In this document: one piece after another, positions 12,300 to 33,747 of the stretch
Numbering within the stretch: position 1 is the first letter of the stretch
How the letters are laid out: each line of letters starts with the position of its first letter
Origin: a virus
Lineage: Duplodnaviria; Heunggongvirae; Uroviricota; Caudoviricetes
Length of the DNA: 43,893 nt
Virus record (IMG/VR): IMGVR_UViG_2645727810_000025
Location: 1-43,893 of that record
Strand: one strand, 5' to 3'
The notes under the pieces: generated by a model
Databases searched by the model: none
Seen by the model: only the letters and a program-made list of their open reading frames with translations
What the model was told of the DNA's origin: nothing
Position numbers and translations under genes: made by a program

Positions 12300-12637
12300 T
12301 GGCTAAATCCGCAGCAGAACGCAAAGCCGCGCAGCGGGCCCGCCAGGCTGAATCTGGTAACCGCAAGCTTGAATTGCAACTCGATGAGCAGGAGCATGAG
12401 ATGCTGGCGCGGAACTGCGCCGCCCGGCGCCCTGGTCGTGCGCCGTATGAGATGAGCGAGTACATCGCGTTGCTTATCCGCCAGGATGATGCGCGAGTTC
12501 GTGGCCGTATCAAGTCAATCAGTTCTAACCGCTGTGGTAAGTGCGGCGATTCGCTACCGGTTGAGTCGTGTCCGTGCGACGGTGATTCTGCATGTTGGGT
12601 GACGCGTGGCTGGCATGAGACTAAGTTATCAGTGTGA
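12299..12637 (+). CDS. hypothetical basic protein with C-terminal Cys cluster (112 aa); candidate regulator
   Basis: ATG after GGAGGTGAGG; N-terminus rich in R/K/Q, C-terminus CGKCGDS...CPCDGDSAC; last gene before the packaging genes. Confidence 0.5.
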   Translation: MAKSAAERKAAQRARQAESGNRKLELQLDEQEHEMLARNCAARRPGRAPYEMSEYIALLIRQDDARVRGRIKSISSNRCGKCGDSLPVESCPCDGDSACWVTRGWHETKLSV

Positions 12638-12645
12638 CATGTCAC
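12634..12645. repeat. 12-bp perfect palindrome GTGACATGTCAC (copy 1)
   Basis: Overlaps the TGA stop of the 12299-12637 gene; followed by an intrinsic terminator. Confidence 0.7.
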
Positions 12646-12668
12646 GATATCTACAATAAATTGCAACG

Positions 12669-12694
12669 GCCGCCGACTATGGCGGCTTTGTTTT
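12669..12694 (+). terminator. rho-independent terminator
   Basis: GCCGCC-gactat-GGCGGC hairpin followed by TTTGTTTTG. Confidence 0.6.
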
Positions 12695-12705
12695 GCGTGT
12701 TACTA

Positions 12706-12738
12706 TTACCAAAACGGTAATTATTACTTCGGTGGTAA
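12706..12738. promoter_or_regulatory. operator-like palindrome TTACCAAAACGGTAA plus degenerate second site TTACTTCGGTGGTAA
   Basis: First site followed by TTATTAC; second site ends 3 nt before the terS ATG. Confidence 0.5.
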
Positions 12739-12740
12739 CA

Positions 12741-13334
12741 ATGCCCGCAGAACCAAAAGCACCAAAACGCAAATCAACGCAGTACAAGCCACTGACAGCG
12801 ATGCAGGAGGCTTACGCGCAGGAATACACCAAATGCCCTGAGAATCAGACGCAGGCAGCGATTAACGCAGGGTTCTCACCTAATACAGCAGCGGTCAAGG
12901 CCAGTGTCATGATGCGTGATGAGCGCATCCAGAAACGGATCGCCGAACTGATGGAAGAGCGCAACAAGCGCCTGCGAGTCAGTGCGGATTACGTACTGCT
13001 TCGCCTGGTAGAAATAGACCAGATGGATGTGATTGACATCCTGAACGATGACGGCACGCTGAAGCCGATCCGCGAGTGGCCAAAGATATGGCGTACCACG
13101 CTGAGCGGTTTCGACCTGTCATCGACCATCATGAACATGGATGAGACCTCGATAGAGACAATCCTCAAAAAAATAAAATGGCCTGACAAGGTGAAGAACC
13201 TCGAGCTTATCGGTAAACACGTGGACGTTAACGCGTTCAAAGAGCGCCTTGAGGTATCCGGCACCGTCACCATTGCCGACCGCATGGCGAAGGCCCGCCG
13301 TCGCGTGAAAGAGCAGGCTGGTGGTGAAGAATGA
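12741..13334 (+). CDS. terminase small subunit
   Basis: 197 aa from ATG at 12741; AGFSPNTAAVKAS segment resembles the P27-family small terminase HTH; directly upstream of and overlapping the large subunit. Confidence 0.7.
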   Translation: MPAEPKAPKRKSTQYKPLTAMQEAYAQEYTKCPENQTQAAINAGFSPNTAAVKASVMMRDERIQKRIAELMEERNKRLRVSADYVLLRLVEIDQMDVIDILNDDGTLKPIREWPKIWRTTLSGFDLSSTIMNMDETSIETILKKIKWPDKVKNLELIGKHVDVNAFKERLEVSGTVTIADRMAKARRRVKEQAGGEE

Positions 13335-14812
13335 CAACCGCAGCCATGTCGCCGGAAGAACAGCTCGTCGAGGATATCGCCTCGTTCACGTATGACCCGC
13401 TGGGCTATTCGCTGTATGCGTTTCCGTGGGGCGAAGAGGGAACAGAGCTGGCGCATGCCACCGGCCCACGCAAATGGCAGGCCGATGCATTCCGCGAGAT
13501 ACGCGATCACCTTCAGAATCCTGCCACTCGTCACCAGCCGCTGATGCTGGCCCGCGCATCCGGCCACGGTATCGGCAAATCCGCGTTCATCTCAATGCTG
13601 ATTAACTGGGGCATGTCCACCTGTGAAGACTGCAAGGTGGTGGTGACCGCCAACACAGACAACCAGCTGCGCACCAAAACATGGCCTGAAATCATCAAAT
13701 GGTCGAACCTGGCTATCACGAAAGAGTGGTTCACCTGCACCGCCACCGCGATGTACAGCAACGATCCCGGTCATGACAAACGCTGGCGCGCTGATGCTAT
13801 CCCATGGTCTGAGCACAACACTGAGGCGTTCGCCGGGCTGCACAACGAGCGTAAGCGCATCATAGTTGTATTCGATGAAGCGTCCAACATTGCCGATCTG
13901 GTGTGGGAAGTTGCCGAGGGTGCGCTGACGGACGAAGACACTGAAATCATCTGGGTGGCGTTCGGGAACCCGACGCGTAACACCGGGCGTTTCCGTGAAT
14001 GCTTCCGTAAATACAAACACCGCTGGAAGTGCGCGCAGATTGATTCACGTACCGTGGAAGGCACCAACAAGGAGCAACTGCAAAAATGGGTGGACGACTA
14101 CGGCGAGGACAGCGATTTCGTCAAAGTACGTGTGCGCGGGATCTTCCCTGACGCTTCTGAAAACCAGTTCATTCCATCAGGCCTGACGCAACCAGCTGTT
14201 GGCAGGGTTATTACTCCGGCACAGGTCCAGCACGCTGCTGTAGTTCTTGGCGTCGACCCGTCTCACCAGGGTAAAGACCCGGCGGTTATCTACCTGCGGC
14301 AAGGCCTGCACTGCAAAAAACTCGGGGAGTGGCAGCGTACCACTGACGATGTGCTGTTTGCGAAAGTGATTGCCGACTTCGAGGACCAGTACCAGGCTGA
14401 CGCTGTGTTTATCGATTACGGCTATGGCACAGGTCTTAAATCTGTTGGCGATAACTGGGGGCGCAACTGGACGCTGATAATGTTCGGCAGCGGTACGGCA
14501 GATCCCGAGATGGGCAACAAACGCGGCGAGATGTATAAATCCGCCCGTGACGCGCTGAAGCTTGGTGCGCAACTGGATAGCCAGGAACTTGCCGACGAAC
14601 TGAGCGCACCTGAATACAAAGTCAGGCTGAAGGACAGTAGGAAGATTTTGCAGGACAAGGACGAGGTGAAAGAATTGCTTGGCCGTTCACCGAACAACGC
14701 CGACGCCTATGTTCTGACCTACGCAGCACCGGTTACAAAAAAACAGTTTAACTATGGGCAGCAGCAAAGCCAGCAGGGTAAGGCACTCACAGAGTACGAT
14801 CCCTATGCATGA
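13331..14812 (+). CDS. terminase large subunit
   Basis: 493 aa; Walker A-like GHGIGKS; size and position between small terminase and the structural genes. Confidence 0.85.
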   Translation: MTTAAMSPEEQLVEDIASFTYDPLGYSLYAFPWGEEGTELAHATGPRKWQADAFREIRDHLQNPATRHQPLMLARASGHGIGKSAFISMLINWGMSTCEDCKVVVTANTDNQLRTKTWPEIIKWSNLAITKEWFTCTATAMYSNDPGHDKRWRADAIPWSEHNTEAFAGLHNERKRIIVVFDEASNIADLVWEVAEGALTDEDTEIIWVAFGNPTRNTGRFRECFRKYKHRWKCAQIDSRTVEGTNKEQLQKWVDDYGEDSDFVKVRVRGIFPDASENQFIPSGLTQPAVGRVITPAQVQHAAVVLGVDPSHQGKDPAVIYLRQGLHCKKLGEWQRTTDDVLFAKVIADFEDQYQADAVFIDYGYGTGLKSVGDNWGRNWTLIMFGSGTADPEMGNKRGEMYKSARDALKLGAQLDSQELADELSAPEYKVRLKDSRKILQDKDEVKELLGRSPNNADAYVLTYAAPVTKKQFNYGQQQSQQGKALTEYDPYA

Positions 14813-14815
14813 AAA

Positions 14816-14840
14816 AGCCCGCGCATCGGCGGGCTTTGTG
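14816..14840. terminator. bidirectional intrinsic terminator
   Basis: GCCCGC-gcatcg-GCGGGC hairpin flanked by A5 upstream and TTTGTG downstream; sits between convergent terL and the leftward 14999 gene. Confidence 0.65.
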
Positions 14841-14990
14841 TAGTGCGCGGTAGATGGTGCTGATATCCATCTGTGGCAGGTTGACAACAGCCACCTTCTT
14901 TCCCCGTCTCGTCAGCATATCGAGAATGTACCGCGCAATTCAGCATAAAAATGCTGAGTTAATAAGTCAATGCCGATTTGCGGGCTGATT

Positions 14991-15002
14991 GTGACATGTC
15001 AC
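14991..15002. repeat. 12-bp perfect palindrome GTGACATGTCAC (copy 2)
   Basis: Contains the TGA stop (reverse strand) of the 14999-15274 gene. Confidence 0.7.
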
Positions 15003-15274
15003 GGCTTAAAAACCGGCGGCACAGATGCCGTTCTTTGGATAGTTTTAATTATCTCACTTTCGTAATGATCTGCTCTTTTTTTCTGAATACTCATGTACTG
15101 AACGATGGCCTGTTGTTCAGTAATCGCACCATTCCTGAGTGCTGCAATAACCATCCTCGCATAAGTATCATGGGCAATTAAAGACTCAAGGTACTCAATA
15201 GCTGATGATTCTTTGGCCTGAATTTCCTGCTCGATAGCCATGAAGGATGGTGCTGGAGATGCAGTTGATACCAT
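14999..15274 (-). CDS. hypothetical helical protein (91 aa)
   Basis: ATG at 15274 with AAGGTG SD (the track's first codon at 15283 is GTG); no family recognised. Confidence 0.5.
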   Translation of the reverse strand: MVSTASPAPSFMAIEQEIQAKESSAIEYLESLIAHDTYARMVIAALRNGAITEQQAIVQYMSIQKKRADHYESEIIKTIQRTASVPPVFKP

Positions 15275-15286
15275 GATTATCACCTT

Positions 15287-15310
15287 AAAAAAATGCCCAC
15301 CGAAGTGGGC
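15287..15310 (-). terminator. intrinsic terminator (minus strand)
   Basis: GCCCAC-ttcg-GTGGGC hairpin followed by a T7 run on the minus strand, downstream of the 15395-15640 gene. Confidence 0.6.
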
Positions 15311-15387
15311 GAACTGGAAGCAAGGGTGCCTTCCATGGCAGTTACGGGTTTACAGCGCAACGTCATCGCAATGGCGTTCTGGTGTAA

Positions 15388-15409
15388 AGCCGCATTAGGC
15401 GGCTTTTTT
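15388..15409 (+). terminator. intrinsic terminator (plus strand)
   Basis: AGCCGC-loop-GCGGCT hairpin followed by TTTTTTG; overlaps the 3' end of the leftward 15395 gene (face-to-face with the minus-strand terminator). Confidence 0.5.
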
Positions 15410-15640
15410 GACTGGCGTTAACCATGCTTTGTTGAATTCCCGCATGGCTTCTTCTGGGGTGCTACCTACGCCGACAACTCCGGTTGGCAGGTCGCCATAT
15501 ATCGCAAGCCATTTATCTCCATCCTGACTAAGTGTCGGTCTGTACAAAACACTCGGTTCACGCATGCATTCAGAAGTAATCTGAAAGTCAGAGGCAACGT
15601 TGAAGAACACGTTTTGGAAATATCCGAGGTCAATATTCAT
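15395..15640 (-). CDS. hypothetical small protein with HicB-like (UPF0150-type) motif
   Basis: 81 aa, ATG with GGAG SD; segment DGDKWLAIYGDLPTGVVGVGSTPEEAMREFNKAW matches the HicB N-terminal pattern (DGGY..S.PDLPGC...G.T.EEA); no DNA-binding domain attached. Confidence 0.45.
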   Translation of the reverse strand: MNIDLGYFQNVFFNVASDFQITSECMREPSVLYRPTLSQDGDKWLAIYGDLPTGVVGVGSTPEEAMREFNKAWLTPVKKAA

Positions 15641-16534
15641 ACTTTTCTCCGGTAAAAAGGGCGGTGGTCAGAAAGGGAATAACTGCCACCGCCAAACTTG
15701 CACTGGAACTACGGGTATCACGGTCCTGAGGCGTGATTGGGTTGTGGTACGCAGTCTATTCGGCATAGCAACTCTGCGCAGATGCTTCTAACAATCACCG
15801 GTGGTAACCGGTTTAATGCCTTATTCACCACAACGGAAAGAGCACTGAAGCGATTACGATTTCAAGGTCGTAATGCTGGCATTGTCGCAATGCTCTTGCC
15901 TGTTGTGTGCTGACCTTACAGCCAGCATGGCTGGAATGAAGCCGCATAACGACTTTTCACCAACTAGGCAGGATCACCCTGAAAGAGCTGCCTCTTGATT
16001 CTTTCAGGCTCCCAATCTTTCCTGGTAGTCAATGCCTTCAGTTGGGCATGCAACCTTCGGTTATCGATCCGTCGTCATCGCCACTGTCCAGGACATTTAA
16101 AAGGACCGTCTCCAAGTGGTAACTCTTCCAGTCCCGCTAAGCACCCGGTGAGATGCTTAACGTGAATGGCTGACATCCTCGTCTCTTCCGAGGTGTCACA
16201 CCGTATCGCCACGATGGTGAGTCGTCTGTCCGTGCTTACCTAACACTGGCTTGCACATTCCGGCTACCCGGCTGGGGAAGTAGCATCAAGGGAACCCATC
16301 CGGACCGCTGCGGCACATGTGCCATATGCCGTACTGCTACACACCTGAAAGCGCACTCCACACCAGGCTCAAAGGTCATTCACTGAAGCGCGCTTTTAGT
16401 TGTGTGCGGAGATGATGCTCCGCTTATCCACCGCCTTTACTTTTAAGCCCAATTTATTGCTGCGGTACTCCGGGCTACTGCACAAGCGGTTACATAACCA
16501 CCTCCGCAATTCGTCAATTCAATACATGAATCAA
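15641..16534. other. about 0.9-kb ORF-free, hairpin-dense region (candidate structured ncRNA or decayed gene)
   Basis: No ORF of 60 aa or more in any frame except one 63-aa track ORF (15600-15791, +) at the left edge, although GC looks like coding DNA; many local stem-loops (GGCGGTGG...CCACCGCC near 15661; CCTGAAAG...CTTTCAGG near 15975; GCGGAG-atgatg-CTCCGC near 16408; palindrome GGCACATGTGCC near 16312). Confidence 0.3.
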
Positions 16535-16549
16535 TTACCTAAAAGGTAA
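16535..16549. promoter_or_regulatory. operator-like palindrome TTACCTAAAAGGTAA
   Basis: TTACC-N5-GGTAA followed by TATCT; a GGTAATAAT half-site follows at about 16607; 90 bp upstream of the 16640 gene and the portal operon. Confidence 0.5.
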
Positions 16550-16639
16550 TATCTGATGTTATAAGTGTCAATAGCCTACGCTAAATAAATCATATGTGGT
16601 TAAATTGGTAATAATTTAATTGCGTACGGAGCTATTGCT

Positions 16640-16846
16640 ATGTGTATCGGCAGCAAGCCATCAGTGCCAGCAGCACCAGAAGTACAGGCCGCGCCACAGG
16701 AGCAGGATGCAGCAGTTGTCAGTTCTCGTGATGACGAAGAGCGCCGCCGCCGTGCAGCTGCTGGTCGCAGTTCTACTCTGCTGACTGGTGCGCAGGGCGA
16801 CACCTCAACCGCAAACACCAGCGGTAAAACGCTGCTCGGTCAGTAA
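16640..16846 (+). CDS. hypothetical small protein (68 aa), Ala/Ser/Thr-rich
   Basis: ATG 12 nt after GGAG; directly upstream of the portal gene. Confidence 0.5.
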   Translation: MCIGSKPSVPAAPEVQAAPQEQDAAVVSSRDDEERRRRAAAGRSSTLLTGAQGDTSTANTSGKTLLGQ

Positions 16847-16860
16847 CGGAGTAGGCAGAG

Positions 16861-18531
16861 ATGGCGGAAACCGAAAAAGAGCGTCTGCTGAAGCAGCTAG
16901 CACAGCTGAAGAGTGAGCGCACATCGTTCGAATCGCACTGGCGTGACCTGAGCGATTTTATCAATCCGCGCGGTTCCCGCTTTCTGACGTCTGATGTAAA
17001 CCGTGATGATCGTCGTAACACCAAGATTGTTGATCCTACCGGCTCAATGGCTCAGCGCATTCTGTCCAGCGGCATGATGTCCGGCATCACGAGCCCGGCA
17101 CGTCCATGGTTCAAACTGGCAACGCCTGACCCTGACATGATGGATTACGGCCCGGTGAAAGTCTGGCTTGAAGTCGTGCAGCGCCGCATGAACGAAGTGT
17201 TCAACAAGTCTAACCTGTATCAGTCACTGCCTGTCATGTACGCCAGCCTGGGTACTTTCGGCACCGCCGCTATGGCTGTGCTGGAAGATGACCAGGACGT
17301 TATCCGCACAATGCCTTTCCCGATTGGCAGCTACTACCTGGCTAACAGCCCGCGCGGCAGCGTCGACACTTCATTCCGTCAGTTCTCCATGACTGTTCGT
17401 CAACTGGTGCAGGAATTCGGTCTGGATAACGTCAGCTCATCGGTGCAGGGGATGTGGCAAAACGGCACGTATGAAACGTGGATCGAGGTTAACCACTGCA
17501 TTACGCCAAACGTTAACCGCGACACAGGGAAGATGGACAGCAAGAACAAGCCGTTCCGCTCCGTGTACTTCGAGAGTGGCGGCGACTCCGACAAGCTGCT
17601 GCGTGAATCCGGATTCGATGAATTCCCGATCCTTGCTCCGCGCTGGGAAGTTAACGGCGAAGACGTTTACGCATCATCCTGCCCCGGCATGCTGGCACTC
17701 GGTCAGGTTAAAGCCCTTCAGGTTGAGCAGAAGCGTAAGGCTCAGCTCATAGATAAGGCCACTAACCCGCCGATGGTTGCACCGACGTCACTTAAAACGC
17801 AGCGTGTTTCCCTGCTTCCTGGTGATGTGACGTACCTCGACGTGTTGAGCGGTCAGGACGGTTTCAAACCTGCATACCTGGTAAACCCGAATACTGCAGA
17901 TCTGCTGGCTGATATTCAGGATACCCGCCAGACCATCAACAGCGCCTACTTTGTCGACCTCTTCATGATGCTGCAAAACATCAATACCCGCTCTATGCCG
18001 GTGGAAGCGGTGATCGAGATGAAGGAAGAGAAACTGCTGATGCTTGGCCCGGTGCTGGAGCGCCTGAACGACGAAGCGCTTAACCCGCTTATTGACCGCG
18101 TGTTCTCCATTATGGCGCGCAAAAATATGCTTCCGCCACCGCCTGACGTTATGCAGGGTATGCCGCTGCGTATCGAATACATCTCCGTTATGGCGCAGGC
18201 TCAGAAATCTATCGGACTCACCAGCCTTTCGCAGACCGTTGGCTTCATTGGCCAACTCGCACAGTTCAAACCTGAAGCACTCGACAAGCTCGATGTGGAT
18301 GAGGCTATCGACGCGTTCTCCGAAATGTCCGGCGTATCGCCAACCGTCATCATTCCGCAGGAGCAGGTTCAGGGCATTCGTGAAGAGCGCGCCAAACAGG
18401 CACAAGCCGCACAGGCAATGGCAATGGGGCAGGCCGTAGCGCAGGGAGCCAAGACTCTCAGCGAGACGCAAACCACTGACCCGAGCGCATTAACCGCTAT
18501 CGCTAATGCAGCAGGAGCACCGCAGCAATGA
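16861..18531 (+). CDS. portal protein
   Basis: 556 aa; first large gene after the terminase region, followed by scaffold and capsid; N-terminal pattern resembles podovirus portal proteins. Confidence 0.75.
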   Translation: MAETEKERLLKQLAQLKSERTSFESHWRDLSDFINPRGSRFLTSDVNRDDRRNTKIVDPTGSMAQRILSSGMMSGITSPARPWFKLATPDPDMMDYGPVKVWLEVVQRRMNEVFNKSNLYQSLPVMYASLGTFGTAAMAVLEDDQDVIRTMPFPIGSYYLANSPRGSVDTSFRQFSMTVRQLVQEFGLDNVSSSVQGMWQNGTYETWIEVNHCITPNVNRDTGKMDSKNKPFRSVYFESGGDSDKLLRESGFDEFPILAPRWEVNGEDVYASSCPGMLALGQVKALQVEQKRKAQLIDKATNPPMVAPTSLKTQRVSLLPGDVTYLDVLSGQDGFKPAYLVNPNTADLLADIQDTRQTINSAYFVDLFMMLQNINTRSMPVEAVIEMKEEKLLMLGPVLERLNDEALNPLIDRVFSIMARKNMLPPPPDVMQGMPLRIEYISVMAQAQKSIGLTSLSQTVGFIGQLAQFKPEALDKLDVDEAIDAFSEMSGVSPTVIIPQEQVQGIREERAKQAQAAQAMAMGQAVAQGAKTLSETQTTDPSALTAIANAAGAPQQ

Positions 18532-18827
18532 CGGATATCGATGACGAAGCCCGCAAAGCAGAGCTTGACGCTAAACAGCAACTTCTGGCGCAGCGCGACA
18601 TTGACGACATTCAGTTTGTCATGGGTAGCGAGCAGGGCCGCCGCGTGATCTGGTCACTGCTTGAGAAAGGTCAGGTGTTCGGTGCTTGCTTCAACGTAGA
18701 TCCACACATCACAGCATTCAACGAAGGGCAGCGCAACCTGGCTCTGGTTCTTTTTCAGCGCGTCATGGCGCACTGCCCCGATCAGTATCTGAAGATGGCC
18801 GCAGAGGCCGGAGAGGACAATTTATGA
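18528..18827 (+). CDS. hypothetical head-morphogenesis protein (99 aa)
   Basis: ATG overlapping the portal stop (ATGA); GGAG SD. Confidence 0.55.
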   Translation: MTDIDDEARKAELDAKQQLLAQRDIDDIQFVMGSEQGRRVIWSLLEKGQVFGACFNVDPHITAFNEGQRNLALVLFQRVMAHCPDQYLKMAAEAGEDNL

Positions 18828-19147: not shown

Positions 19148-19158
19148 GGAGATAACCA

Positions 19159-19866: not shown

Positions 19867-19883
19867 TAAGAGAGGATATAACC

Positions 19884-20870: not shown

Positions 20871-20921
20871 CGCCTGTCATTAACTAATGGGCCTTAACCG
20901 GCCCATGAATGGAGAAAGAAA

Positions 20922-21362: not shown

Positions 21363-21372
21363 GGGGATATCG

Positions 21373-26186: not shown

Positions 26187-28807
26187 TGCCAGTTGTACCT
26201 ACAGTTAACGGACGCCAGGTCGAAAGTCGTGGGTTTCAGTCTCCTGGATTTCAGGCTTTTGATCAGCCAAACATCGGTGATGCTATCGTCGACGCTGGCA
26301 GCAAAGCTATCAACGTATTTGGAGAGGCCAAGCAACGGGCAAATGTGGCACTTACCCAAGAGGCAACTCTTCAACTGAATGCGGTTGGCAACGATCTGCT
26401 AAATAACCCTGATTCAGGCTTCATGAATCTGCAAGGGAAGAACGCGATCGGCAAGGGGCAGGAGTACGTGCAGCAGTTTGATTCTCAGGCGCAGAGCATT
26501 GCAGCAAGCCTGCCGGATGAGCAGGCGCGAAATGCGTTTCTTCAGCAGGCACAGCAGCAGAGAATCCAGTTCCAGACGACCGCTGTTCGTCATGAAGTTG
26601 GGCAGGTGCGTCAGTACGAAGCAGGTATGCAGGAGGGAACGTTACGTTCGCTGGCACAGCAGGCGATTTCTCCTGGTCTGTTTGTTCCTGCATTGATGAA
26701 TGCTCGTAATTCTATTATCGCTTATGGGAAAGCCCACGGACAGAGCGATGAGGAAATAGAGTCTAATTTCGTGCAGTGGCGTGAGCAGGCCGCCAACCGC
26801 GCCAGCGAAGCATGGTATACACAAACCTATCAGCAAATCATGGGGCCGGAAGGTAAGATCGAAGTTACCGACACTCCGAGCGAATCGCAGCTTTTTTCCG
26901 CGATGATCTGGCATGAATCCGGAGGTAATCAGTATGGCAAAGACGGTTTACCACTGGTATCTCCGAAAGGTGCAGTAGGGGTGGCGCAGGTGATGGAGGA
27001 TACGGGGCCGGAAGCAGCACGACTGGCTGGCGTACCGTGGGATCGTGGTAAGTGGCTGAACGATACGCGCTACAATGCGAAGCTTGGTCAAGCCTACTTC
27101 GGCGCGCAGATGAAGAAGTATGACAATAATCCTGTACTGGCGGTGGCGGCGTATAACGCTGGGCCAGGTGAGGTTGATGGATGGATAAAGCAGTTTGGCG
27201 ACCCGCGTACTGGTGCGGTGAGCAATGAGCAATTCGCTGCGGCAATCCCTTATGATGAAACTCGCAACTATGTCGCGAAAGTAACCGGCAGCGCTCCGGC
27301 GATACCAGGAACTGCTACGATGGAAAACCTCATCAATCAGCCTTTCTGGGATGCGATGAGTCCGCAGAACAAATCAGCGATGATGAGCAAAGTGGCAGGC
27401 ATGTACGATATGCAAGCCGCAGCTGGTCGCGTGTCATTGCAAAGCCGCATGCAGGATGACCTTGCTAAATTAGAGTCAGGACAGAAAGTTAACCCGATCT
27501 CGGAACGTGAGTGGCTGGCGGTCATGCCGTTGCAGGCAAGCCCGGCGGAGCGCATTCAGATGCGCGAGTCATTCCAGCAATATCAGCAGGCGATGACGCT
27601 GCAACCGGTATATCAATCCATTGTTCAGGGTTCTGCGCAGCAGGGTATCGCTGCGGTGCAGTCTATGGTGCCGCAGGAAGATGACCCTGACTTTAAATTT
27701 AAGCAGAGCTTGTACGCAACTGCGCAGGCCAAACTGAATCAGGTAATTAAAGCGCGCGAGTCCGACCCGGGTACGTGGCTACAAGCCAACTCGCCGGTGG
27801 TGAAAAACGCCTTTGAGCAATATCAGAACAACCAGGCATCAGGTGAATATCTGGTTTCCCGTCTGCAAGCAGAGAAAGACCGCCTTGGTATCAATAGTAA
27901 GAAGGTACTTCCTGACGCCATGGTTAACAACCTCATTTCTCAGATCGATAACAATAAAGAATCAAGCGTGACCGCCATTCAGTCGGTGGCGCAGTCGTTC
28001 GGAAAATACTCCGATCAGGTTATGCAGCAGGTGCAGAAAAGCGCATATCCAGCGCTTCAAGTCATCATGGCGACCAATAATCCTCGGGCCGCCAACGCGC
28101 TCTGGCAAAACCGCAGTGTTAAAACTTCTGACCTGCGCGGCACCTTTGAGAAGACAGACGCCGACAGCGCCGACTCATCCTGGAATGACCAGGCTAAAGA
28201 CTTTGCCGGTACGATGGTTGTGCAGCCTGGCGGGGCCGCCGTATGGAATAACTTCAACGAGCAGGGCAAGCGTCTTACCTACACCTATATGCAGCGCGGC
28301 ATGTCACCGGGCGATGCAGCAAAACAGGCCTACCAGGACGTTCTCGGTGAACAGTATCAGACCAATGGCACCTGGCGTATGCCGAACAACTCCGGGCACG
28401 ATATTCGCGACGTTAACGACGGCGCTAACGAGTATCTGAAAAACCTGTCAGCCGATCAGATCATGCCGCTTATCGGCGATGCCCGTCTACCGGATGAGGT
28501 TAACCGCGAGCAGAGTATTTCGCGCATTCGTGAAAATGCGCAGTGGGTGACGAACAGCAACGAAACAGGGCTGACACTGATGATGAACGGGCTGCTGATC
28601 AATAACGCCCAGGGGCAGCCGATTACCGTGCCGTTTGCTGACCTGGCGAAACTTGGCGCTGGCAACCGCACCACGTGGAACAGCCTGACTAAATTCGTGC
28701 AGACGCCGGTTAAGTACACTCCGGGCCAGTCGAAGAATTACACGGTGGAAAGTCAGCGCGACAACCTGATCAACATTATCCAGAACGGCCAGCAGGCGGG
28801 ACGATAA
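26183..28807 (+). CDS. internal virion / ejection protein with lytic transglycosylase (SLT) domain
   Basis: 874 aa; SLT motifs (MIWHESGGNQYG ... AYNAGPGEVDGW) in the N-terminal third. Confidence 0.75.
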   Translation: MMPVVPTVNGRQVESRGFQSPGFQAFDQPNIGDAIVDAGSKAINVFGEAKQRANVALTQEATLQLNAVGNDLLNNPDSGFMNLQGKNAIGKGQEYVQQFDSQAQSIAASLPDEQARNAFLQQAQQQRIQFQTTAVRHEVGQVRQYEAGMQEGTLRSLAQQAISPGLFVPALMNARNSIIAYGKAHGQSDEEIESNFVQWREQAANRASEAWYTQTYQQIMGPEGKIEVTDTPSESQLFSAMIWHESGGNQYGKDGLPLVSPKGAVGVAQVMEDTGPEAARLAGVPWDRGKWLNDTRYNAKLGQAYFGAQMKKYDNNPVLAVAAYNAGPGEVDGWIKQFGDPRTGAVSNEQFAAAIPYDETRNYVAKVTGSAPAIPGTATMENLINQPFWDAMSPQNKSAMMSKVAGMYDMQAAAGRVSLQSRMQDDLAKLESGQKVNPISEREWLAVMPLQASPAERIQMRESFQQYQQAMTLQPVYQSIVQGSAQQGIAAVQSMVPQEDDPDFKFKQSLYATAQAKLNQVIKARESDPGTWLQANSPVVKNAFEQYQNNQASGEYLVSRLQAEKDRLGINSKKVLPDAMVNNLISQIDNNKESSVTAIQSVAQSFGKYSDQVMQQVQKSAYPALQVIMATNNPRAANALWQNRSVKTSDLRGTFEKTDADSADSSWNDQAKDFAGTMVVQPGGAAVWNNFNEQGKRLTYTYMQRGMSPGDAAKQAYQDVLGEQYQTNGTWRMPNNSGHDIRDVNDGANEYLKNLSADQIMPLIGDARLPDEVNREQSISRIRENAQWVTNSNETGLTLMMNGLLINNAQGQPITVPFADLAKLGAGNRTTWNSLTKFVQTPVKYTPGQSKNYTVESQRDNLINIIQNGQQAGR

Positions 28808-28808
28808 G

Positions 28809-30515
28809 ATGCCTATTTATACAGATGATCCGGGGCAGGGTATAAACCAGCCGTTGTCGAATGCCCAGGCAGGGTTGGGTGAATCACTGCTTTCTTCCCT
28901 GAAAGAGGGATTTAAAGAGGGGCCGGTAGTATCCGGCTATCGTTTCTCCCAGGCTGAACAACTGGCTAACGATCCGAACTCGACCATTGTCGCCAAATCA
29001 GATGCCGATGCTCGCCTGAAAGAGTACGGTGTGAAAAGCATTAACGTGCCGGAAAGTGGAGTCACGCAGTCGTATCTCGATCATGTGATCAGCGAGCGCC
29101 GGGAATCGCTGGCGAAGCAGCAGATCGCCATGTCGGCCCCGTCTGGATGGGTAGCCACTCCGCTTAACTTTGCCGCAAACCTTGCTGGCTCCATGGCTGA
29201 CCCCGGCAACGTGGCGCTGGCGCTGGTCCCGTTCGGTGGAGAAGCGAAAGCGGCTACCATGCTCGGGCGGTTCGGCGAACGCTTGGCTACCGGCGCGCGG
29301 CTTGGCGCTGGCCAGGCCATTGCCACCGTACCGCTGACGGCACAGGCAGCAGCGGCAGAAGGGGATGACTTCACCTACGGCAATGCGCTGGAGAGCACTT
29401 TTTTTAACACCCTGGCTGGCGGGCTTATGCACGCTGGCGGCGGGCTTATCTCTGATGTTGTACGCTCCCGCAGGGCTGGCACAACTGAAAATCCTGCTAC
29501 CTCGCCAGACGCTCAGCCCGTCGCTGATGCGCAGCCAACGCCGGTAGTCACGCCTGACAATATTCCGGCTGGCGTCAATATTCCTGAGGCCGGCACTAAC
29601 GCCGATCTGTCAGCGGCAATCGCGCGGGATGCAGAGGCCTACGCCTACAGCCGCGCCTATGATGATGTCGTGCCGGAATATCTCGCCCGGCAGCAGGAGC
29701 TACAGACCGGGCGCGTCGACAACGTTGCCGATCTGCGCACTGAGCTGACGACCAATAACCGGCAAAGTGAAGCGCTTGACGCTACGCTGGCGCAGCGCAC
29801 GACGGAGTATCAGGCGCAACGTATGAACTTCAAAGCGGCGCGAGCCAGGGCGCAGCGTGATATTCAGGGTGAGAAAGACACCATTGCCGCGCGTAATCAG
29901 GAAATTAACCAGACGCTTGAGCGTAACGCCGCCGCAGAACAGGCGCGCGGCAGAGAGTCGCAACTGTCACGAAAAGAGATCCCCGACGACCTGGCCCCGT
30001 TAATCGATCAGCGCGCACAGCAGATCCGCGAGAGCATGCAGATGTCACCGGTCGCCGGTGCCGTGCGTACAGCTTCGGCAGCGGTGCGGGAGGCAGACTG
30101 GAGCGTAAACCAGCAGGCTTATCGCGGCGCACTGGCGCACATGATGGAAGGTCGCTCTCCGGACATTGAGCCTTTCTACGATCTGCACAAACCAGCGCTA
30201 CGCGAGCGTGCTATCCAACGCATCCAGAATCCTGTGCGGCAGGCTAATGAAGGTTCACGCGCCGTCAGTGAAAGTGCCGATCGTGTGTGGCAGGATACGC
30301 AAAAGGCTGACCACGAAATCACAGCGGCCACTGCCGATCTGGAAAATGAATTCAATATCAGTGACGCGCTGCTGAACGACATTGCCGCAGACAACCCTGA
30401 GCTGGCAGCGTCAATGCGCGAGAACATTGCCGCGATCCGTGCAGAGGCCAGTGACGACTCTATCGGCAAAGCGTATCGCGCTTTCGCCGCCTGTATGATT
30501 AACCGGGGGCTGTAA
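28809..30515 (+). CDS. internal virion / ejection protein
   Basis: 568 aa; position in the ejection-protein block. Confidence 0.55.
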   Translation: MPIYTDDPGQGINQPLSNAQAGLGESLLSSLKEGFKEGPVVSGYRFSQAEQLANDPNSTIVAKSDADARLKEYGVKSINVPESGVTQSYLDHVISERRESLAKQQIAMSAPSGWVATPLNFAANLAGSMADPGNVALALVPFGGEAKAATMLGRFGERLATGARLGAGQAIATVPLTAQAAAAEGDDFTYGNALESTFFNTLAGGLMHAGGGLISDVVRSRRAGTTENPATSPDAQPVADAQPTPVVTPDNIPAGVNIPEAGTNADLSAAIARDAEAYAYSRAYDDVVPEYLARQQELQTGRVDNVADLRTELTTNNRQSEALDATLAQRTTEYQAQRMNFKAARARAQRDIQGEKDTIAARNQEINQTLERNAAAEQARGRESQLSRKEIPDDLAPLIDQRAQQIRESMQMSPVAGAVRTASAAVREADWSVNQQAYRGALAHMMEGRSPDIEPFYDLHKPALRERAIQRIQNPVRQANEGSRAVSESADRVWQDTQKADHEITAATADLENEFNISDALLNDIAADNPELAASMRENIAAIRAEASDDSIGKAYRAFAACMINRGL

Positions 30516-33061
30516 TGGCTAACGAATTTCTGACGCAATGCGAAATGACCGTCAATACGGCTGCCGGGCGCAAGCTGTCTGAGGACGAAATGGAATCTCT
30601 GGTGCGTGACATGAACGACACCACTAACCGGATCCTGGCTGGCAATGAAGCACTGACACTGGAAGAAGCGGCGATGCGCGCCGCGCAGGAGCTTGGCAAC
30701 CGCGAGCAACTGGCGAAAGTAATCGAGGCACGCAACAAGGCCATCAATACGCGCATTGCAGCGCAGCGCCTCGGTGAGCTTCGCCGGACGTGGAAAGACA
30801 GGCCTGACATTGGGCTGGAAGCAATGCTGGTAGGCCGCAATGACGCGCGCACCGGCTCCCGCCGCTCTGTATCGTCTGAGGTGGCCCAGCTGCGCGGGAA
30901 GTATCACGCCGGTATTAACTACGATTTCGACCAGGCCGGGCTGGTTAAATTTATTGCCAGCGGCAGCAACGACCGGGAGATCGCCGACGCCATGTGGCGC
31001 ATCGGTCGCGGACAGAAAACGGACGGCATGACGCCACAATCTGTCAGTGCTGCGAAGATCATCATGAAGTGGCAGGAAACTGCGCGCGTGGATGAAAACC
31101 GTGCTGGTGCCTGGATCGGCAAGATGCCCGGCTACATCGTACGGCAGTCGCATGACATCCTGAAAATTCGTGCCGCCGGGTATGAGTCCTGGCGCAATGC
31201 CATTCTGCCGCGCCTTGATGATATGACATTTGACGGGATCACCGACCGCGATGGATTCCTGCGTGGCGTTTATGATGGCTTGGCCTCCGGCGTGCACCTG
31301 ACATCTGAAAAGCCTGACTGGATGAATGGCTTCAAGGGATCGTCTAACGCGGCGAAGCGCGCCAGCCAGGAGCGCGTGCTGCACTTCAAAGACGGTGTTA
31401 ACTGGCACGAATACAATGAGCAATTCGGGACCGGCAGCCTGCGAGAAGCAGTATTCGGTGGCCTGAACAGCGCGGCGCGCACGACGGGCATGATGCGCGT
31501 ACTGGGCACTAACCCGCAGAACATGTTCAAGTACCTGACAGACACCATCGCCAAAGACGTGAGTAAGCAGAGCAACCCTGCGGCGCTGGCAGATTTCATG
31601 ACCAAAGTTCGCCGGCTGAATCGCACGGTGATGCCTCAGGTAGACGGATCTCTGAATATCCCCGGCAGTGTCGGCTGGGCCAATGCCTCCGCTAACGTGC
31701 GCGGCTGGCTGCGAATGAGTCAGCTCGGCGGCGCGGTTATTTCGTCTTTTAACGACGTGCCGATCTCGGCGACAGAAATGCGGTATCAGGGCCAGAATTT
31801 TATGCAGGCGCTGACCGGCGCAATGAAGGGGCGCTTCTCCCGCTACACCAGTGATGAGCAGAAGGAAATTCTTTCCTCCATCGGCGTTTATTCCGACACG
31901 ATGACGCAAGAGATCATCCGTCGCATGTCCGGCGACGACAGCATGAGCGGGAAGATGGGCCGTGCGCAGCAACTGTTCTTCAAATACAACCTCATGAACT
32001 TCTGGACAGAATCCGGGCGTAACAGCAACGCCATGATGATAACCAACTGGCTGGCGAAGAACGCGGATCAGCAGTTCACGGCGTTGCCGGAAGACCTGCG
32101 CCGCGTGCTGGACCTGCACGGCATAGGTGACGCTGAATGGAATATCTACCGCAGCATGGACATGGCAGACAGCGAAGGCCGCAAATTCATGACGACCAGC
32201 GGAATTCGTGGCGTTCCGGATGAGGTGATAGCCTCATATGTTGAAGGAAAAGGCATGAAGGTCACCGAGCGATCTATTGCCGATGCGAGAGACACGCTGG
32301 AAAGCCAACTTCGTGGGTATATTCTTGACCGACTAAACATCGCTATGTCAGAGCCGGGAGACCGTACGCAGGCGTTTATGAAGATGGGCACTGTACCAGG
32401 AACAGTAGCTGGGGAGGCAATACGTTTCGCTGGTCAGTACAAATCGTTCACTGCGAGTTTCATGCAGAACGTGCTTGGACGTGAGGTATTCGGGCGTGGT
32501 TATACTCCCGCAGGACTGGGTGAGTCGAAAACCGGATCTCTGACGAATGCGCTGCTGCGTAACGGAAAAGGTGCATTCTTGGGGGCGGCAAACCTGTTCG
32601 TCTGGGCAACCATGTTTGGCTATATCTCTATGCAGTCGAAACTATTGCTTAAGGGGCAGACGCCGCGTCCGGCAGATGCCAAGACATTCCTCGCAGCCGC
32701 ATCTCAGGGCGGAGGCCTAGGCATCTTAGGCGACTTCATGTTTGGCGAAGTCAATCGCATGGGGGCTGGTCCAGTGACATCATTGATGGGGCCAGCCGCG
32801 TCGAACGCTGATAGCATTATCACGTTGTTCCAGCAGACAACGCGCGGCGATGCAGACCTGGGTGACTGGTATCGCACCGCGCTGGACAATACGCCTTTCC
32901 TTAACGTGTTCTGGCTGCGCACAGCAATGAATGGTTTAATATTGAACCGTATACAGGATGCGCTTGACCCAGGCTCTTTGGAGCGATATCAGCGCCGGGT
33001 TGAGCGTGAGCAGGGTAACGACTTTCTGATTCCACCATCGCAGTTCATGCTAGGGAAGTAA
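30515..33061 (+). CDS. internal virion / ejection protein
   Basis: 848 aa; coupled to the previous gene; with it, comparable in total length to T7 gp16. Confidence 0.55.
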   Translation: MANEFLTQCEMTVNTAAGRKLSEDEMESLVRDMNDTTNRILAGNEALTLEEAAMRAAQELGNREQLAKVIEARNKAINTRIAAQRLGELRRTWKDRPDIGLEAMLVGRNDARTGSRRSVSSEVAQLRGKYHAGINYDFDQAGLVKFIASGSNDREIADAMWRIGRGQKTDGMTPQSVSAAKIIMKWQETARVDENRAGAWIGKMPGYIVRQSHDILKIRAAGYESWRNAILPRLDDMTFDGITDRDGFLRGVYDGLASGVHLTSEKPDWMNGFKGSSNAAKRASQERVLHFKDGVNWHEYNEQFGTGSLREAVFGGLNSAARTTGMMRVLGTNPQNMFKYLTDTIAKDVSKQSNPAALADFMTKVRRLNRTVMPQVDGSLNIPGSVGWANASANVRGWLRMSQLGGAVISSFNDVPISATEMRYQGQNFMQALTGAMKGRFSRYTSDEQKEILSSIGVYSDTMTQEIIRRMSGDDSMSGKMGRAQQLFFKYNLMNFWTESGRNSNAMMITNWLAKNADQQFTALPEDLRRVLDLHGIGDAEWNIYRSMDMADSEGRKFMTTSGIRGVPDEVIASYVEGKGMKVTERSIADARDTLESQLRGYILDRLNIAMSEPGDRTQAFMKMGTVPGTVAGEAIRFAGQYKSFTASFMQNVLGREVFGRGYTPAGLGESKTGSLTNALLRNGKGAFLGAANLFVWATMFGYISMQSKLLLKGQTPRPADAKTFLAAASQGGGLGILGDFMFGEVNRMGAGPVTSLMGPAASNADSIITLFQQTTRGDADLGDWYRTALDNTPFLNVFWLRTAMNGLILNRIQDALDPGSLERYQRRVEREQGNDFLIPPSQFMLGK

Positions 33062-33062
33062 T

Positions 33063-33434
33063 ATGAACAGAATTATATTAATGACTCTTCTTATTTTTTT
33101 TGTTGGAAAAGCTTCTGCTGATACTACATCACCTTTAATGATTCAGCCTAAAAATGGAGAAACATTGGAGGATTCTAAAAAGCATACAATGGAATACTTT
33201 GGATGCATAAAAGGGCAGGCTGTAAAGTATGCCAAGACAGGAGAAAGTGTTGATTCCATATCAAAAGCTTCGGTTGTGTCATGCGAGTCATACATACCAA
33301 TGATCGCCGAGTCGAATATATATTATTTAAACTCTTCGCAAGATGGTAAGCGGCAATTTACAGAAAGGCTAAAATCTGATGGTGAGAGATTAGCCACAAA
33401 ATTTGCCATGGATGAGAAGATTAAAAATAAATAG
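33063..33434 (+). CDS. secreted/periplasmic hypothetical protein (AT-rich moron)
   Basis: 123 aa with signal peptide MNRIILMTLLIFFVGKASA/DT; visibly lower GC than the flanking structural genes. Confidence 0.6.
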   Translation: MNRIILMTLLIFFVGKASADTTSPLMIQPKNGETLEDSKKHTMEYFGCIKGQAVKYAKTGESVDSISKASVVSCESYIPMIAESNIYYLNSSQDGKRQFTERLKSDGERLATKFAMDEKIKNK

Positions 33435-33442
33435 GTGACCAC

Positions 33443-33739
33443 ATGCAAGCTATTGGTTTCATTGTTTACATAGTTGTTGGTCTTTTTCAGTTGGCTGCGA
33501 TCATGGCTGGTCTTGAATCGTGGTGGGGACTGCACTGGATAGTGGCTGCACCCATTGCTTTCATCGTTAGTTATATCCCGTTGGTCGGTTCCATTGTTGG
33601 AATGGTTGGCGCTGTCGACGTATGGCGTTGGGAATGGTGGCAGGCAGGGCTTCTTTTCTTTGGCGGCCTGGTTTTTGCTATTGCGTGCGGGGGAATGTCT
33701 TCGTTCTTCGAATGGCTATCCTTCAGGAAAAGAGCGTGA
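33443..33739 (+). CDS. small integral membrane protein (98 aa, about 3 TM segments)
   Basis: Hydrophobic Trp-rich sequence; ATG after AGGTGA; stop lies inside the GTGACATGTCAC palindrome. Confidence 0.6.
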   Translation: MQAIGFIVYIVVGLFQLAAIMAGLESWWGLHWIVAAPIAFIVSYIPLVGSIVGMVGAVDVWRWEWWQAGLLFFGGLVFAIACGGMSSFFEWLSFRKRA

Positions 33740-33747
33740 CATGTCAC
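33736..33747. repeat. 12-bp perfect palindrome GTGACATGTCAC (copy 3)
   Basis: Overlaps the TGA stop of the 33443-33739 gene; followed by a terminator. Confidence 0.7.

Follow-up and report, generated by a model that had tools for sequence, protein, structure and literature searches.

A 12-bp palindrome at operon ends of an epsilon15-like phage, a candidate DNA site of the phrog_536 protein

Genes and features around the palindrome

The window, the whole 43,893-nt (43.9-kb) stretch of viral DNA analysed here, is an epsilon15-like (Uetakevirus) genome. The palindrome GTGACATGTCAC occurs exactly three times in it (Table 1). An exact scan recovered the same three sites that an earlier note on this DNA had reported, and no other copy. 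The rarity claimed there also held, with about 0.003 occurrences expected for a palindromic 12-mer in 43.9 kb against three observed; the count was zero in all 100 dinucleotide-preserving shuffles of the window. Each copy contains the TGA stop of a gene, as had been stated, at 12635-12637 (plus strand), 14999-15001 (TCA on the plus strand, the gene being on the minus strand) and 33737-33739 (plus strand). Overlap with a stop is general at copy 1 only, and at copies 2 and 3 many relatives have their stops a few bases before the palindrome.

All three copies adjoin a hairpin at an operon end. The hairpins with T runs described after copies 1 and 3 were found at 12668-12687 and 33749-33768, and both meet the definition of an intrinsic terminator. 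The palindrome itself was ruled out as an intrinsic terminator, given its weak fold (-1.2 kcal/mol, not better than shuffled sequence) and lack of a U run. Epsilon15 carries an annotated terminator at the place matching 12668-12697 of the window. The longest open reading frame of the phrog_536 gene opens at an in-frame ATG at 12278, and homologues begin with MAKS, corresponding to 12299. The TTACC-N5-GGTAA operator before terS belongs to a separate palindrome family, distinct from GTGACATGTCAC, which marks operon starts, and the late operons possess promoters of their own, under repressor control. At copy 1 only, there is a weak promoter-like match (GTGACA-17-TAAATT), which is not conserved across subgroups.

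In relatives, copy 2 too is flanked by a terminator, the bidirectional one of terL, which is found on its left on the plus strand and hence downstream of it on the minus strand. This hairpin has decayed in the window, where the one at 15014-15030 is found instead. The N-terminal 41 aa of the leftward 94-aa frame were found in seven related loci, with differing C-terminal ends. The phrog_3075 gene ends within the palindrome in three of the four homologues found. Copies 2 and 3 flank variable accessory-gene regions, and the G+C content falls past copy 3. A relaxed form of the motif gives a fourth match in the tailspike gene of the window; the epsilon15 tailspike gene lacks it.

Table 1. Positions of the palindrome copies and neighbouring features in the window.
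Feature	Position	Strand	Remarks
phrog_536 gene, 112 aa	12299..12637	+	Final gene of the rightward early operon; TGA inside copy 1
Palindrome copy 1, GTGACATGTCAC	12634..12645	.	Candidate site of the protein encoded just upstream; position kept in 74/80 related loci and in N15-like and P2-like clades
Intrinsic terminator closing the early operon	12668..12697	+	Hairpin 12668-12687 and T run, 22 nt past copy 1
Repressor operator TTACC-N5-GGTAA	12706..12720	.	Before terS
Palindrome copy 2	14991..15002	.	Between terL (end 14812) and convergent leftward genes; motif after terL in 59/70 related loci with enough sequence
Leftward ORF, 94 aa	14999..15283	-	No family match; TGA inside copy 2
Small bidirectional hairpin	15014..15030	.	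12 nt right of copy 2
phrog_3075 gene, 98-aa predicted membrane protein	33443..33739	+	Closes the structural operon block; TGA inside copy 3
Palindrome copy 3	33736..33747	.	Palindrome followed by GGCCGC hairpin, likewise in epsilon15, phiV10, TL-2011b, Tyrion and 20 viral contigs
Intrinsic terminator	33749..33778	+	Hairpin 33749-33768 and T run, 1 nt past copy 3, at the junction with convergent leftward genes
Relaxed-motif fourth match, GTGACCCGTCAC	35893..35904	.	Within the tailspike gene; status uncertain

Conservation and linkage to the phrog_536 gene

The earlier note suggested looking for the motif in related phages, and there it is kept rather than absent. Epsilon15 contains exactly three copies, all syntenic with those of the window. 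Tyrion also has three at the same positions, one of them spanning the record junction, and phiV10 combines two exact copies with GTGACATGTTAC, which spans its record junction, in the same three places. TL-2011b has two copies and is devoid of copy 2. In 80 Uetakevirus-like loci, 142 motifs were counted in 1.35 Mb against 1.3 expected, of which 74 are located at the stop of the phrog_536 gene, 62 after terL and 6 elsewhere. Gene and motif are thus joined in 74 of the 80 loci. Copy 2 is missing in 11 of 70 loci, which indicates that phages can do without the extra copies. Elsewhere in epsilon15, convergent junctions such as that after the tailspike gene have terminators and no motif.

The gene-motif linkage extends to more distant phages, in counts anchored on the protein match and not on the motif. 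In the N15 gp46 clade, the TGA stop lies inside GTGACTGGTCAC or a centre variant in all 49 loci, and the link was found in 52 of 57 loci of a P2-like Yersinia clade. In the Vibrio clade, the site is located about 230 nt downstream of the gene (3/3). An Enterobacterales sample of one genome per species (80 loci), with protein identity down to 46-55%, contained 65 motifs in 486 kb versus 0.46 expected; the motif lies within 40 nt of the gene stop in 45 species, and 35 have no site near the stop. Contigs of the Proteus/Providencia type carry the motif 0.6-4.7 kb upstream of the gene, in the same operon, in 55 of 62 cases, and in Proteus-type phages the site falls within a CII-like coding region. 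Gene and motif also co-occur in contigs otherwise sharing nothing with the window, and the linkage persists among proteins of only about 37-50% identity. The motif is found 5-26 nt past a TAA, TAG or TGA stop in Chlobot, Xenorhabdus and Pectobacterium. As the motif is kept where the stop overlap is lost, coding constraint does not explain it. Many phages have no terminator after the site, and N15-like, P2-like and other phages have a ribosome-binding site or promoter-like sequence directly after it.

Across phages, the consensus is GTGAC-NN-GTCAC. Only the two central bases vary, the 5-bp half-sites are invariant, and the spacer is two bases in every copy and clade. Among 196 unique contexts, both half-sites were intact in 156, one mismatch was seen in 5, and 35 had no site. 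Compensatory double changes were not seen in these contexts. Within a genome, the central bases of copy 1 change independently of those of copy 2.

The phrog_536 protein

The product of the gene ending in copy 1 belongs to the phrog_536 family, which includes epsilon15 gp49 and N15 gp46. The window protein matches the phrog_536 profile over its full length (E 2e-52), and the profile matches N15 gp46 and members from Yersinia, Vibrio and Aeromonas with E values of 1e-31 to 5e-42. The designation of phrog_536 as a transcriptional regulator is an annotation only. Searches of Pfam, NCBIfam and PDB sequences with the protein gave no significant match, nor was there a sequence-level match to a Pfam ribbon-helix-helix (RHH) family. 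The AlphaFold model (pLDDT 83-94 for residues 21-70) shows a core with a strand-helix-helix, RHH-type fold. An hhalign comparison of the family profile with an RHH_1 protein gave 75% probability (E 2e-5), spanning the strand and first helix. This core is preceded by a basic N-terminal helix and followed by a C-terminal tail with four cysteines, which presumably binds zinc. The N-terminus is arginine-rich, and the four cysteines together with R8 and R13 of the basic helix are invariant in the family. Strand residues of the protein were not found to covary with the site, so there is no direct recognition signal. In the literature searched, no description of this motif-protein pairing was found.

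Proposed role at operon boundaries

The palindrome is most likely the site of the phrog_536 protein, since it is conserved at the stop of that gene across many temperate phages. It is judged moderately probable that GTGAC-NN-GTCAC serves as the DNA site of this protein and acts on transcription as a block or gate at operon boundaries. Among the three roles suggested in the earlier note, a binding site for a dimeric regulator fits best, considering the linkage to a gene for a small RHH protein across very different phages, the invariant half-sites and the varying centre. The same gene-site linkage and free centre lend indirect support to a phrog_536 dimer on the symmetric candidate site. In the manner of other RHH proteins, a dimer would place one subunit on each GTGAC half-site and leave the two central bases unread.

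Rather than at promoters, the sites are located in DNA that is transcribed, namely where the regulator's own gene ends and, among epsilon15-like phages, also beside the terminators of the junction between terS-terL and the leftward genes and of the long structural operon. Because the sites lie inside transcribed DNA, the bound protein would be expected to act on elongating RNA polymerase at operon boundaries, most plausibly as a block or gate to transcription. In the preferred version, it would form a roadblock reinforcing the neighbouring terminators, which could gate read-through of the early operon into downstream DNA and shield convergent units from one another. Binding of the protein to the site, the effect on transcription and the sign of that effect (block versus antitermination) are all features that we infer. 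Counting against this reading, the copy 2 hairpin stands before the palindrome for rightward and after it for leftward transcription, and hence there is no single polarity rule. The species with no site near the stop, the loci missing copy 2, the epsilon15 terminators that have no motif and the negative result for covariation weigh against it too. The description of the palindrome as terminator-associated is correct for its position in epsilon15-like phages but fails as a general rule, as N15-like, P2-like and other phages have a ribosome-binding site or promoter-like sequence directly after it.

RHH repressors such as P22 Arc, Mnt, CopG and the antitoxins MazE, ParD and TacA share with this system the small size of the protein and its predicted strand-helix-helix core, conserved half-sites within a short symmetric DNA site, and adjacency of gene and site. 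RHH regulators normally act at promoters, and a site at the 3' end of the own gene is unusual. The operators of these repressors overlap promoters, usually their own, whereas the phage sites are found at gene 3' ends, inside coding regions or beside terminators. The phrog_536 family also differs in its conserved basic N-terminal helix and its C-terminal four-Cys module.

Alternative explanations

The protein, encoded last in the early operon like lambda Q, could instead be an antitermination timer that binds the palindromes and lets RNA polymerase run through the neighbouring terminators into terS-terL, the structural operon and the DNA after it. This is considered unlikely. As with Q, the regulator is encoded by the last gene of the early rightward operon and its DNA site follows immediately downstream, at the early/late junction and near a terminator. 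For rightward transcription, terminators come after copies 1 and 3, and the C-terminal Cys cluster recalls Q and Ogr, which contain zinc. However, family searches revealed no similarity to Q, and the site is not within a conserved promoter, for which reasons a Q-type antiterminator was rejected. The family is also present in N15-like and P2-like phages, and N15 and the P2-like phages are usually credited with late regulators of their own, Q and Ogr; in a P2-like record, a different small transcriptional regulator is annotated where Ogr would be expected. The repressor-controlled promoters of the late operons, the terminator preceding copy 2 for rightward transcription, and the many phages without a terminator after the site are also at odds with this model. 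The additional palindrome copies at operon ends are a further difference from the Q system.

A further proposal, considered rather unlikely, is that the operator is purposely built into stop codons. LacI on an operator overlapping the lacI 3' end reportedly acts as a roadblock and gives a truncated, tmRNA-tagged product, a finding attributed to Abo and colleagues in 2000. The candidate phage operator likewise overlaps the 3' end of the gene that encodes the regulator, and polymerase would therefore be stalled by bound protein ahead of the stop codon. The putative RHH-zinc protein would halt RNA polymerase a few bases before the stop of any gene ending there, namely the regulator gene itself, the final structural-operon gene, a leftward accessory gene and, in Proteus-type phages, a CII-like gene. 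The stalled transcripts would have no stop codon, and the encoded protein would consequently be tagged by tmRNA and destroyed. If true, a single DNA site would both insulate adjacent operons and switch off the product of the last gene. LacI differs in its fold, and the phage arrangement is conserved family-wide and is repeated at the stops of other genes.

Transcribed as GUGACAUGUCAC into the untranslated 3' part of three operons, the palindrome might function as an RNA element, either a small hairpin or protein-bound RNA, with an effect on processing, 3'-end stability, termination or the translation of the gene that follows. It is always transcribed, is closely followed by a terminator hairpin in the direction of the preceding gene or abuts the next ribosome-binding site, and reads the same in transcripts of either strand. 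Three of the five single-mismatch variants would still pair as G-U, and the arginine-rich N-terminus of the linked protein also speaks for this reading. On the other side, the hairpin is no more stable than shuffles, and the bases themselves are invariant instead of changing in compensatory pairs. These two results weakly disfavour the RNA processing role put forward earlier, and likewise a role in RNA structure. The core of the linked protein is of the RHH type, a fold that to our knowledge binds double-stranded DNA in all cases studied, and the Proteus-type site lies within a coding region. An RNA element is regarded as improbable.

Equally improbable is a role confined to recombination, in which the palindromes would be conserved linkers for module exchange or targets of site- or structure-specific enzymes, with no regulatory function. 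In keeping with the suggested recombination hotspot, the palindromes are located exactly at conserved/variable junctions. At each of the three copies, sequence conserved on one flank gives way, immediately at the palindrome, to unrelated sequence on the other, the genes that end there differ between phages, and copies 2 and 3 border the variable accessory regions, with the G+C drop after copy 3. Nevertheless, any functional site ending a conserved block gives equal one-sided conservation. A hotspot is not needed and cannot explain the single-copy phages, as the N15-like and P2-like Yersinia phages mostly have one copy (examined over 3 kb to either side of the gene and in one whole P2-like genome) and no apparent partner. 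The independent drift of the centres of copies 1 and 2 gives no sign of exchange between them, and no recombinase is linked to the motif.

Relation to host-factor sites

Sites of host proteins that organise the chromosome or govern division, such as matS (bound by MatP) or the SlmA site, could in principle be mimicked by the palindrome so as to engage that machinery, which is very unlikely. SlmA likewise recognises a palindrome of 12 bp with the form GTGA....TCAC (consensus GTGAGTACTCAC), but the phage centre departs from it at four positions (CATG versus GTAC), and an SlmA site was rejected. A CRP site, with the consensus TGTGA-N6-TCACA, was dismissed for wrong spacing, as copies 1 and 2 read TGTGA-N4-TCACg.

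The E. coli matS consensus GTGACATTGTCAC equals the phage 12-mer plus one central base (PMC8669397), and its pattern has been given as GTGAC-RNY-GTCAC, 13 bp (PMC3603311). Membership in the matS class was rejected, given a spacer of two bases and not three in all window copies and clade variants. Neither the window nor the viral loci of the first scanned set (L005-L123) contained a 13-bp form (GTGAC-N3-GTCAC). Conversely, 100 kb of the E. coli K-12 Ter region contained five matS and no 12-bp form; the earlier note had held that frequent occurrence of the 12-mer in the host genome would speak against it, and this sample showed none. The concentration near the host terminus that characterises matS was not seen either, the sites being on phage or prophage DNA beside one gene family. 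True matS sites have been reported as absent from prophages (PMC3603311). The tight link to a phage gene suggests a phage-encoded reader.

The phrog_536 protein is not MatP, with an hhalign probability of 0.1% and no detectable homology. It has neither the four-helix bundle nor the coiled coil of that organiser of the enterobacterial Ter macrodomain, and carries the four-Cys tail instead. The matS sequence has 13 bp (GTGACRNYGTCAC), against 12 bp for the phage motif in all clades, and the sites linked to phrog_536 are on phage genomes, tied to the stop codon of the regulator's own gene. The likenesses are the identical half-sites GTGAC and GTCAC in a short perfect palindrome, a reader that in MatP uses an RHH strand together with a helix in the major groove (PMC8669397), and sites that are few, dispersed and away from promoters. 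In a bolder and likewise unlikely variant of the stop-codon proposal, the phrog_536 protein and its matS-like sites would be a phage counterpart of MatP-matS, organising phage DNA or unloading host SMC complexes.

Distribution of the palindrome in the window and in related phages

As the earlier note had claimed, the window contains exactly three copies of the palindrome GTGACATGTCAC, and each indeed encloses the TGA stop of an open reading frame. The terminators said to follow copies 1 and 3 were also found, each as a hairpin with a T run. No copy of GTGACATGTCAC appeared in 100 dinucleotide-preserving shuffles of the window; the shuffles and the conservation of the palindrome in relatives rule out a chance origin. 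In a search of the window allowing two mismatches, the extra matches were weak and unrelated, except GTGACCCGTCAC inside the tailspike gene, which fits the relaxed form GTGAC-NN-GTCAC. About 0.04 relaxed motifs are expected per window, and this match may be due to chance or be an extra site; the tailspike gene of epsilon15 contains no relaxed motif.

Coordinates of the palindromes, neighbouring features and repressor operators in the window
Feature	Position	Strand	Remark
Palindrome copy 1	12634-12645
Reading frame ending in copy 1	12278/12299-12637	+	TGA inside palindrome
Hairpin with T run after copy 1	12668-12687
Palindrome copy 2	14991-15002		after terL
Reading frame ending in copy 2	14999-15283	-	TGA inside palindrome
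Small hairpin near copy 2	15014-15030		terL hairpin of relatives decayed in window
Palindrome copy 3	33736-33747
Reading frame ending in copy 3	33443-33739	+	TGA inside palindrome
Hairpin with T run after copy 3	33749-33768
Relaxed-motif match GTGACCCGTCAC	35893-35904		inside tailspike gene
Repressor operator 1	5493-5507
Repressor operator 2	5569-5583
Repressor operator 3	5631-5645
Repressor operator 4	6355-6369
Repressor operator 5	6372-6386
Repressor operator 6	6402-6416
Repressor operator 7	8549-8563
Repressor operator 8	12706-12720		precedes terS
Repressor operator 9	16535-16549		precedes portal operon
Repressor operator 10	34955-34969		precedes leftward ant gene
Repressor operator 11	35338-35352		precedes tailspike gene

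Judged by its genes, the genome in the window is epsilon15-like (Uetakevirus). Its terS, terL and structural genes match those of Salmonella phages 65FD, PAT1, SPN1S and epsilon15, of Enterobacter phage Tyrion, and of E. coli phages phiV10 and TL-2011b. E. coli O157 phages and serotype-converting Salmonella phages belong to this group. A scan of related phages, proposed in the earlier note, located the palindrome in epsilon15, Tyrion, phiV10 and TL-2011b. Epsilon15 has exactly three copies in the same places (at the gp49 stop, 27 bp past terL, and at the gp18 stop), Tyrion has three after circular closing of its linear record, phiV10 has two plus GTGACATGTTAC spanning the record junction, and in TL-2011b just copies 1 and 3 are present. 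At the place of the missing copy 2, TL-2011b (13690-13780 of the stretch compared) shows a clean bidirectional terminator complete with A and T runs; in the phages having copy 2, the hairpin has only a poor T run towards terL.

All three copies in the relatives follow one order: stop codon, palindrome, 1-25 nt, G+C-rich hairpin, and T run. Copy 2 is such a unit on the minus strand: the bidirectional terL terminator is on its left, and just to its right the leftward accessory genes end. Each palindrome has one conserved flank and one flank that is unrelated between phages, up to the motif itself. The sites thus described are within transcribed DNA, where genes end and beside terminators, not at promoters. 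Among the annotated features of the epsilon15 record are repressor operators (ATTACC-N5-GGTAAT), IHF sites, RNase III sites, and terminators, but none marks the palindrome.

The palindrome is not the repressor operator, since the epsilon15-type operator differs in sequence and sits at operon starts. Eleven TTACC-N5-GGTAA operators, one with a mismatch, are present in the window, where 0.7 are expected, and the repressor gene has them on both flanks. As these copies stand at operon starts, one palindrome family marks where operons begin and the other where three of them end.

Linkage to the phrog_536 gene

Across the sequences compared, a conserved symmetric motif is tightly linked to one gene family. 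When viral contigs were scanned with the 14-mer TGTGACATGTCACG, the 3' end of the gene at 12299-12637 and the palindrome were found together in contigs sharing nothing else with the window; the remaining matches are coding coincidences, e.g., R-D-M-S in the N-termini of Q antiterminators. This gene belongs to phrog_536, and the linkage counts were anchored on the phrog_536 protein rather than on the motif, GTGAC-NN-GTCAC being counted afterwards. In the 80 Uetakevirus-like loci, 1.35 Mb in all, 142 motifs were counted where 1.3 are expected: 74 at the stop of the gene, 62 after terL, and 6 elsewhere; the site after terL is present in 59 of the 70 loci with enough sequence. The TGA stop lies within GTGACTGGTCAC or GTGACGGGTCAC throughout the N15 gp46 clade (49/49), GTGACGCGTCAC is found in 52 of 57 members of a P2-like Yersinia clade, and Pantoea AH07 carries GTGACCTGTCAC at the stop. 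In a Vibrio clade, the site is about 230 nt downstream (3/3). Among Enterobacterales taken as one genome per species, from Citrobacter to Brenneria, 45 of 80 have the motif at most 40 nt from the stop; this set holds 65 motifs in 486 kb versus 0.46 expected, at protein identities of 46-93%.

Lambdoid contigs of the Proteus/Providencia/Morganella type (L322-L383) have the motif in 55 of 62 cases, 0.6-4.7 kb upstream in the same operon and not at the stop. Three contigs, L117, L055, and L028 (two copies, no phrog_536 gene in the stretch examined), were considered as gene-free cases and rejected as such, being lambdoid immunity regions. The site lies there in a CII-like gene, and related contigs carry the phrog_536 gene 0.6-4.7 kb away. 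In L117, the exact 12-mer occupies 876-887; one site of this kind stands 60 nt before the stop of a CII-like activator gene by cro and cI. The 12-mer also occurs in six unrelated viral contigs (L023 ~10826, L042 ~763, L052 ~3170, L057 ~399, L070 ~1944, and L108 ~10869), within dense iteron-like arrays of GTGAC/GTCAC half-sites; the stretches of these contigs that were examined showed no phrog_536 gene.

In Xenorhabdus, Pectobacterium, Erwinia, and phage Chlobot, the palindrome stands 5-26 nt past a TGA, TAA, or TAG stop, so that the motif is kept for its own sake. This survival away from the stop, together with the fact that 8 of the 12 bases are non-coding, led to the rejection of a coding constraint imposed by the last codon and the stop. 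A packaging signal was set aside as well: copies 1 and 2 bracket terS-terL in the window, but the terminase genes of N15-like, P2-like, and Pantoea phages are far from the gene and its site.

Tandem sites, 27 nt from start to start, follow the regulator gene directly in contigs of Symbiopectobacterium and Pectobacterium (L442 and L453), the first site overlapping the TGA stop. This arrangement suggests that binding may be cooperative in some lineages.

Variation of the motif

Among 196 unique gene-anchored contexts, both 5-bp half-sites are intact in 156, one mismatch occurs in 5, and the site is missing from 35; double changes that compensate each other were not observed. Only the two central bases vary, AT being by far the commonest, with AG, CT, CC, GT, TG, GC, and AC also found. 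A methylase or restriction target (CATG, ACATGT) is rejected by this pattern, in which the centre varies and the flanks are constant. The RNA form of the 12-mer has a folding energy of only -1.2 kcal/mol and gains nothing over shuffled sequences. Fixed half-sites, a free centre, the lack of compensatory changes, and the weak RNA fold are the hallmark of a site read base by base by a symmetric dimer; they are not that of an RNA stem under selection. Within a genome, copies 1 and 2 vary in their centres independently of each other, and no concerted evolution of the two was found; the independent centres indicate that the copies are separately maintained and not homogenised.

The phrog_536 protein

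The phrog_536 family, labelled "transcriptional regulator", includes epsilon15 gp49, phiV10 p55, N15 gp46, and phiKO2 gp45. It is small, with 153 clusters at 50% identity among 1.84 billion representatives, and ranges over epsilon15-like, N15-like, P2-like, and Vibrio phages as well as prophages across Enterobacterales. The protein, of 112 aa in the window, had no match in Pfam, NCBIfam, or PDB sequences and none by Foldseek; one Yersinia member weakly matches the NCBIfam model "LexA regulated protein". Alignments reveal a basic N-terminal helix (AERKAAQRxRQ, with R8 and R13 invariant), a strand-helix-helix pattern followed by a long second helix, and four invariant cysteines (C-x2-C ... C ... 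C). An AlphaFold model built on a more diverse alignment than that of a first, poor model reached pLDDT 83-94 at residues 21-70. In hhalign, the family profile aligned over the strand and first helix (75% probability, E 2e-5) with a protein that Pfam assigns to RHH_1, presumably E. coli YbfE. The core of the protein is accordingly predicted, with moderate confidence, to be a ribbon-helix-helix (RHH) DNA-binding domain. No covariation of the strand residues with the central dinucleotide was found.

Comparison with matS and MatP

The half-sites of the phage motif are those of matS, for which the pattern GTGAC[AG]N[TC]GTCAC has been published (PMC3603311), with the 13-bp GTGACATTGTCAC as the E. 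coli consensus (PMC8669397). The phage 12-mer equals this consensus less one central base, the spacer being 3 bases in matS and 2 everywhere in the phage motif. MatP contacts matS through a helix and an RHH strand (PMC8669397); E. coli MatP has no detectable similarity to the phrog_536 family profile. Two 50-kb stretches of E. coli K-12 (L320, 1.30-1.35 Mb; L321, 1.50-1.55 Mb) contain five 13-bp matS sites, and this 100-kb terminus sample, which is not from the true host, contains no 12-bp GTGAC-NN-GTCAC, so the host uses one spacing and the phage the other. True matS has been reported absent from prophages (PMC3603311). The phage element thus resembles a MatP-type site in architecture, yet on these sequence grounds it appears to lie outside that system: MatP similarity is lacking, the spacer is shorter, the terminus sample has no 12-bp form, and prophages are without matS. 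The identical half-sites and the reported exclusion of matS from prophages raise the question of cross-talk with the host MatP-matS system.

Proposed mode of action

A dimer of the phrog_536 protein would bind the motif, and the bound protein would act on transcribing polymerase at operon boundaries. The favoured form is a roadblock that would strengthen termination and gate read-through. Three points favour a roadblock: RHH proteins are for the most part repressors, the junctions at copies 2 and 3 are convergent, and simple negative feedback would follow where the regulator's gene ends in the site or, as in the Proteus type, has it upstream within the same operon. Antitermination in the manner of Q is a serious, although improbable, alternative. 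Against it, the family also occurs in N15-like and P2-like phages, and N15 and P2 have late regulators of their own (Q and Ogr, respectively); repressor-controlled promoters precede each late operon in the window; and the order of hairpin and site at copy 2 is reversed for rightward transcription. If the roadblock operates, the stop codons embedded in the site suggest that stalled polymerase may give rise to non-stop messages and a tmRNA-tagged product, as reportedly occurs with LacI.

RHH regulators with palindromic sites are known as a kind. Unusual here are the position of the site at stop codons and terminators, the wide range over which gene and site are linked, and the matS-like half-sites. 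The searchable literature, which did not cover the original epsilon15 genome paper, yielded nothing relevant on the 12-mer, epsilon15 palindromes, N15 gp46, or Uetakevirus regulation. It likewise yielded no functional study of the phrog_536 family, beyond the generic regulator label, and no work on operon punctuation or timing in epsilon15-like phages other than repressor and antirepressor. An uncharacterised protein family is now paired with a precise 12-bp DNA motif, which leads to the testable hypothesis of a regulator working at gene ends and not at promoters. In addition, the motif is a handy annotation marker of operon ends in epsilon15-like phages.

Other features near copies 1 and 3

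At 12634-12662 of the window, GTGACA of copy 1, 17 nt, and TAAATT score as a sigma-70-like promoter. Transcripts from this putative promoter would begin within the hairpin after copy 1 and so bypass the terminator into terS. The same arrangement is present in epsilon15 and absent from other subgroups.

The two genes before copy 3 (33063-33739) encode a secreted-looking protein of 123 aa and a membrane protein of 98 aa (phrog_3075); epsilon15 has another small gene, gp18, in their place. Base composition over 33000-38000 drops from about 0.58 to 0.47 G+C around these genes, a location consistent with an acquired accessory block.
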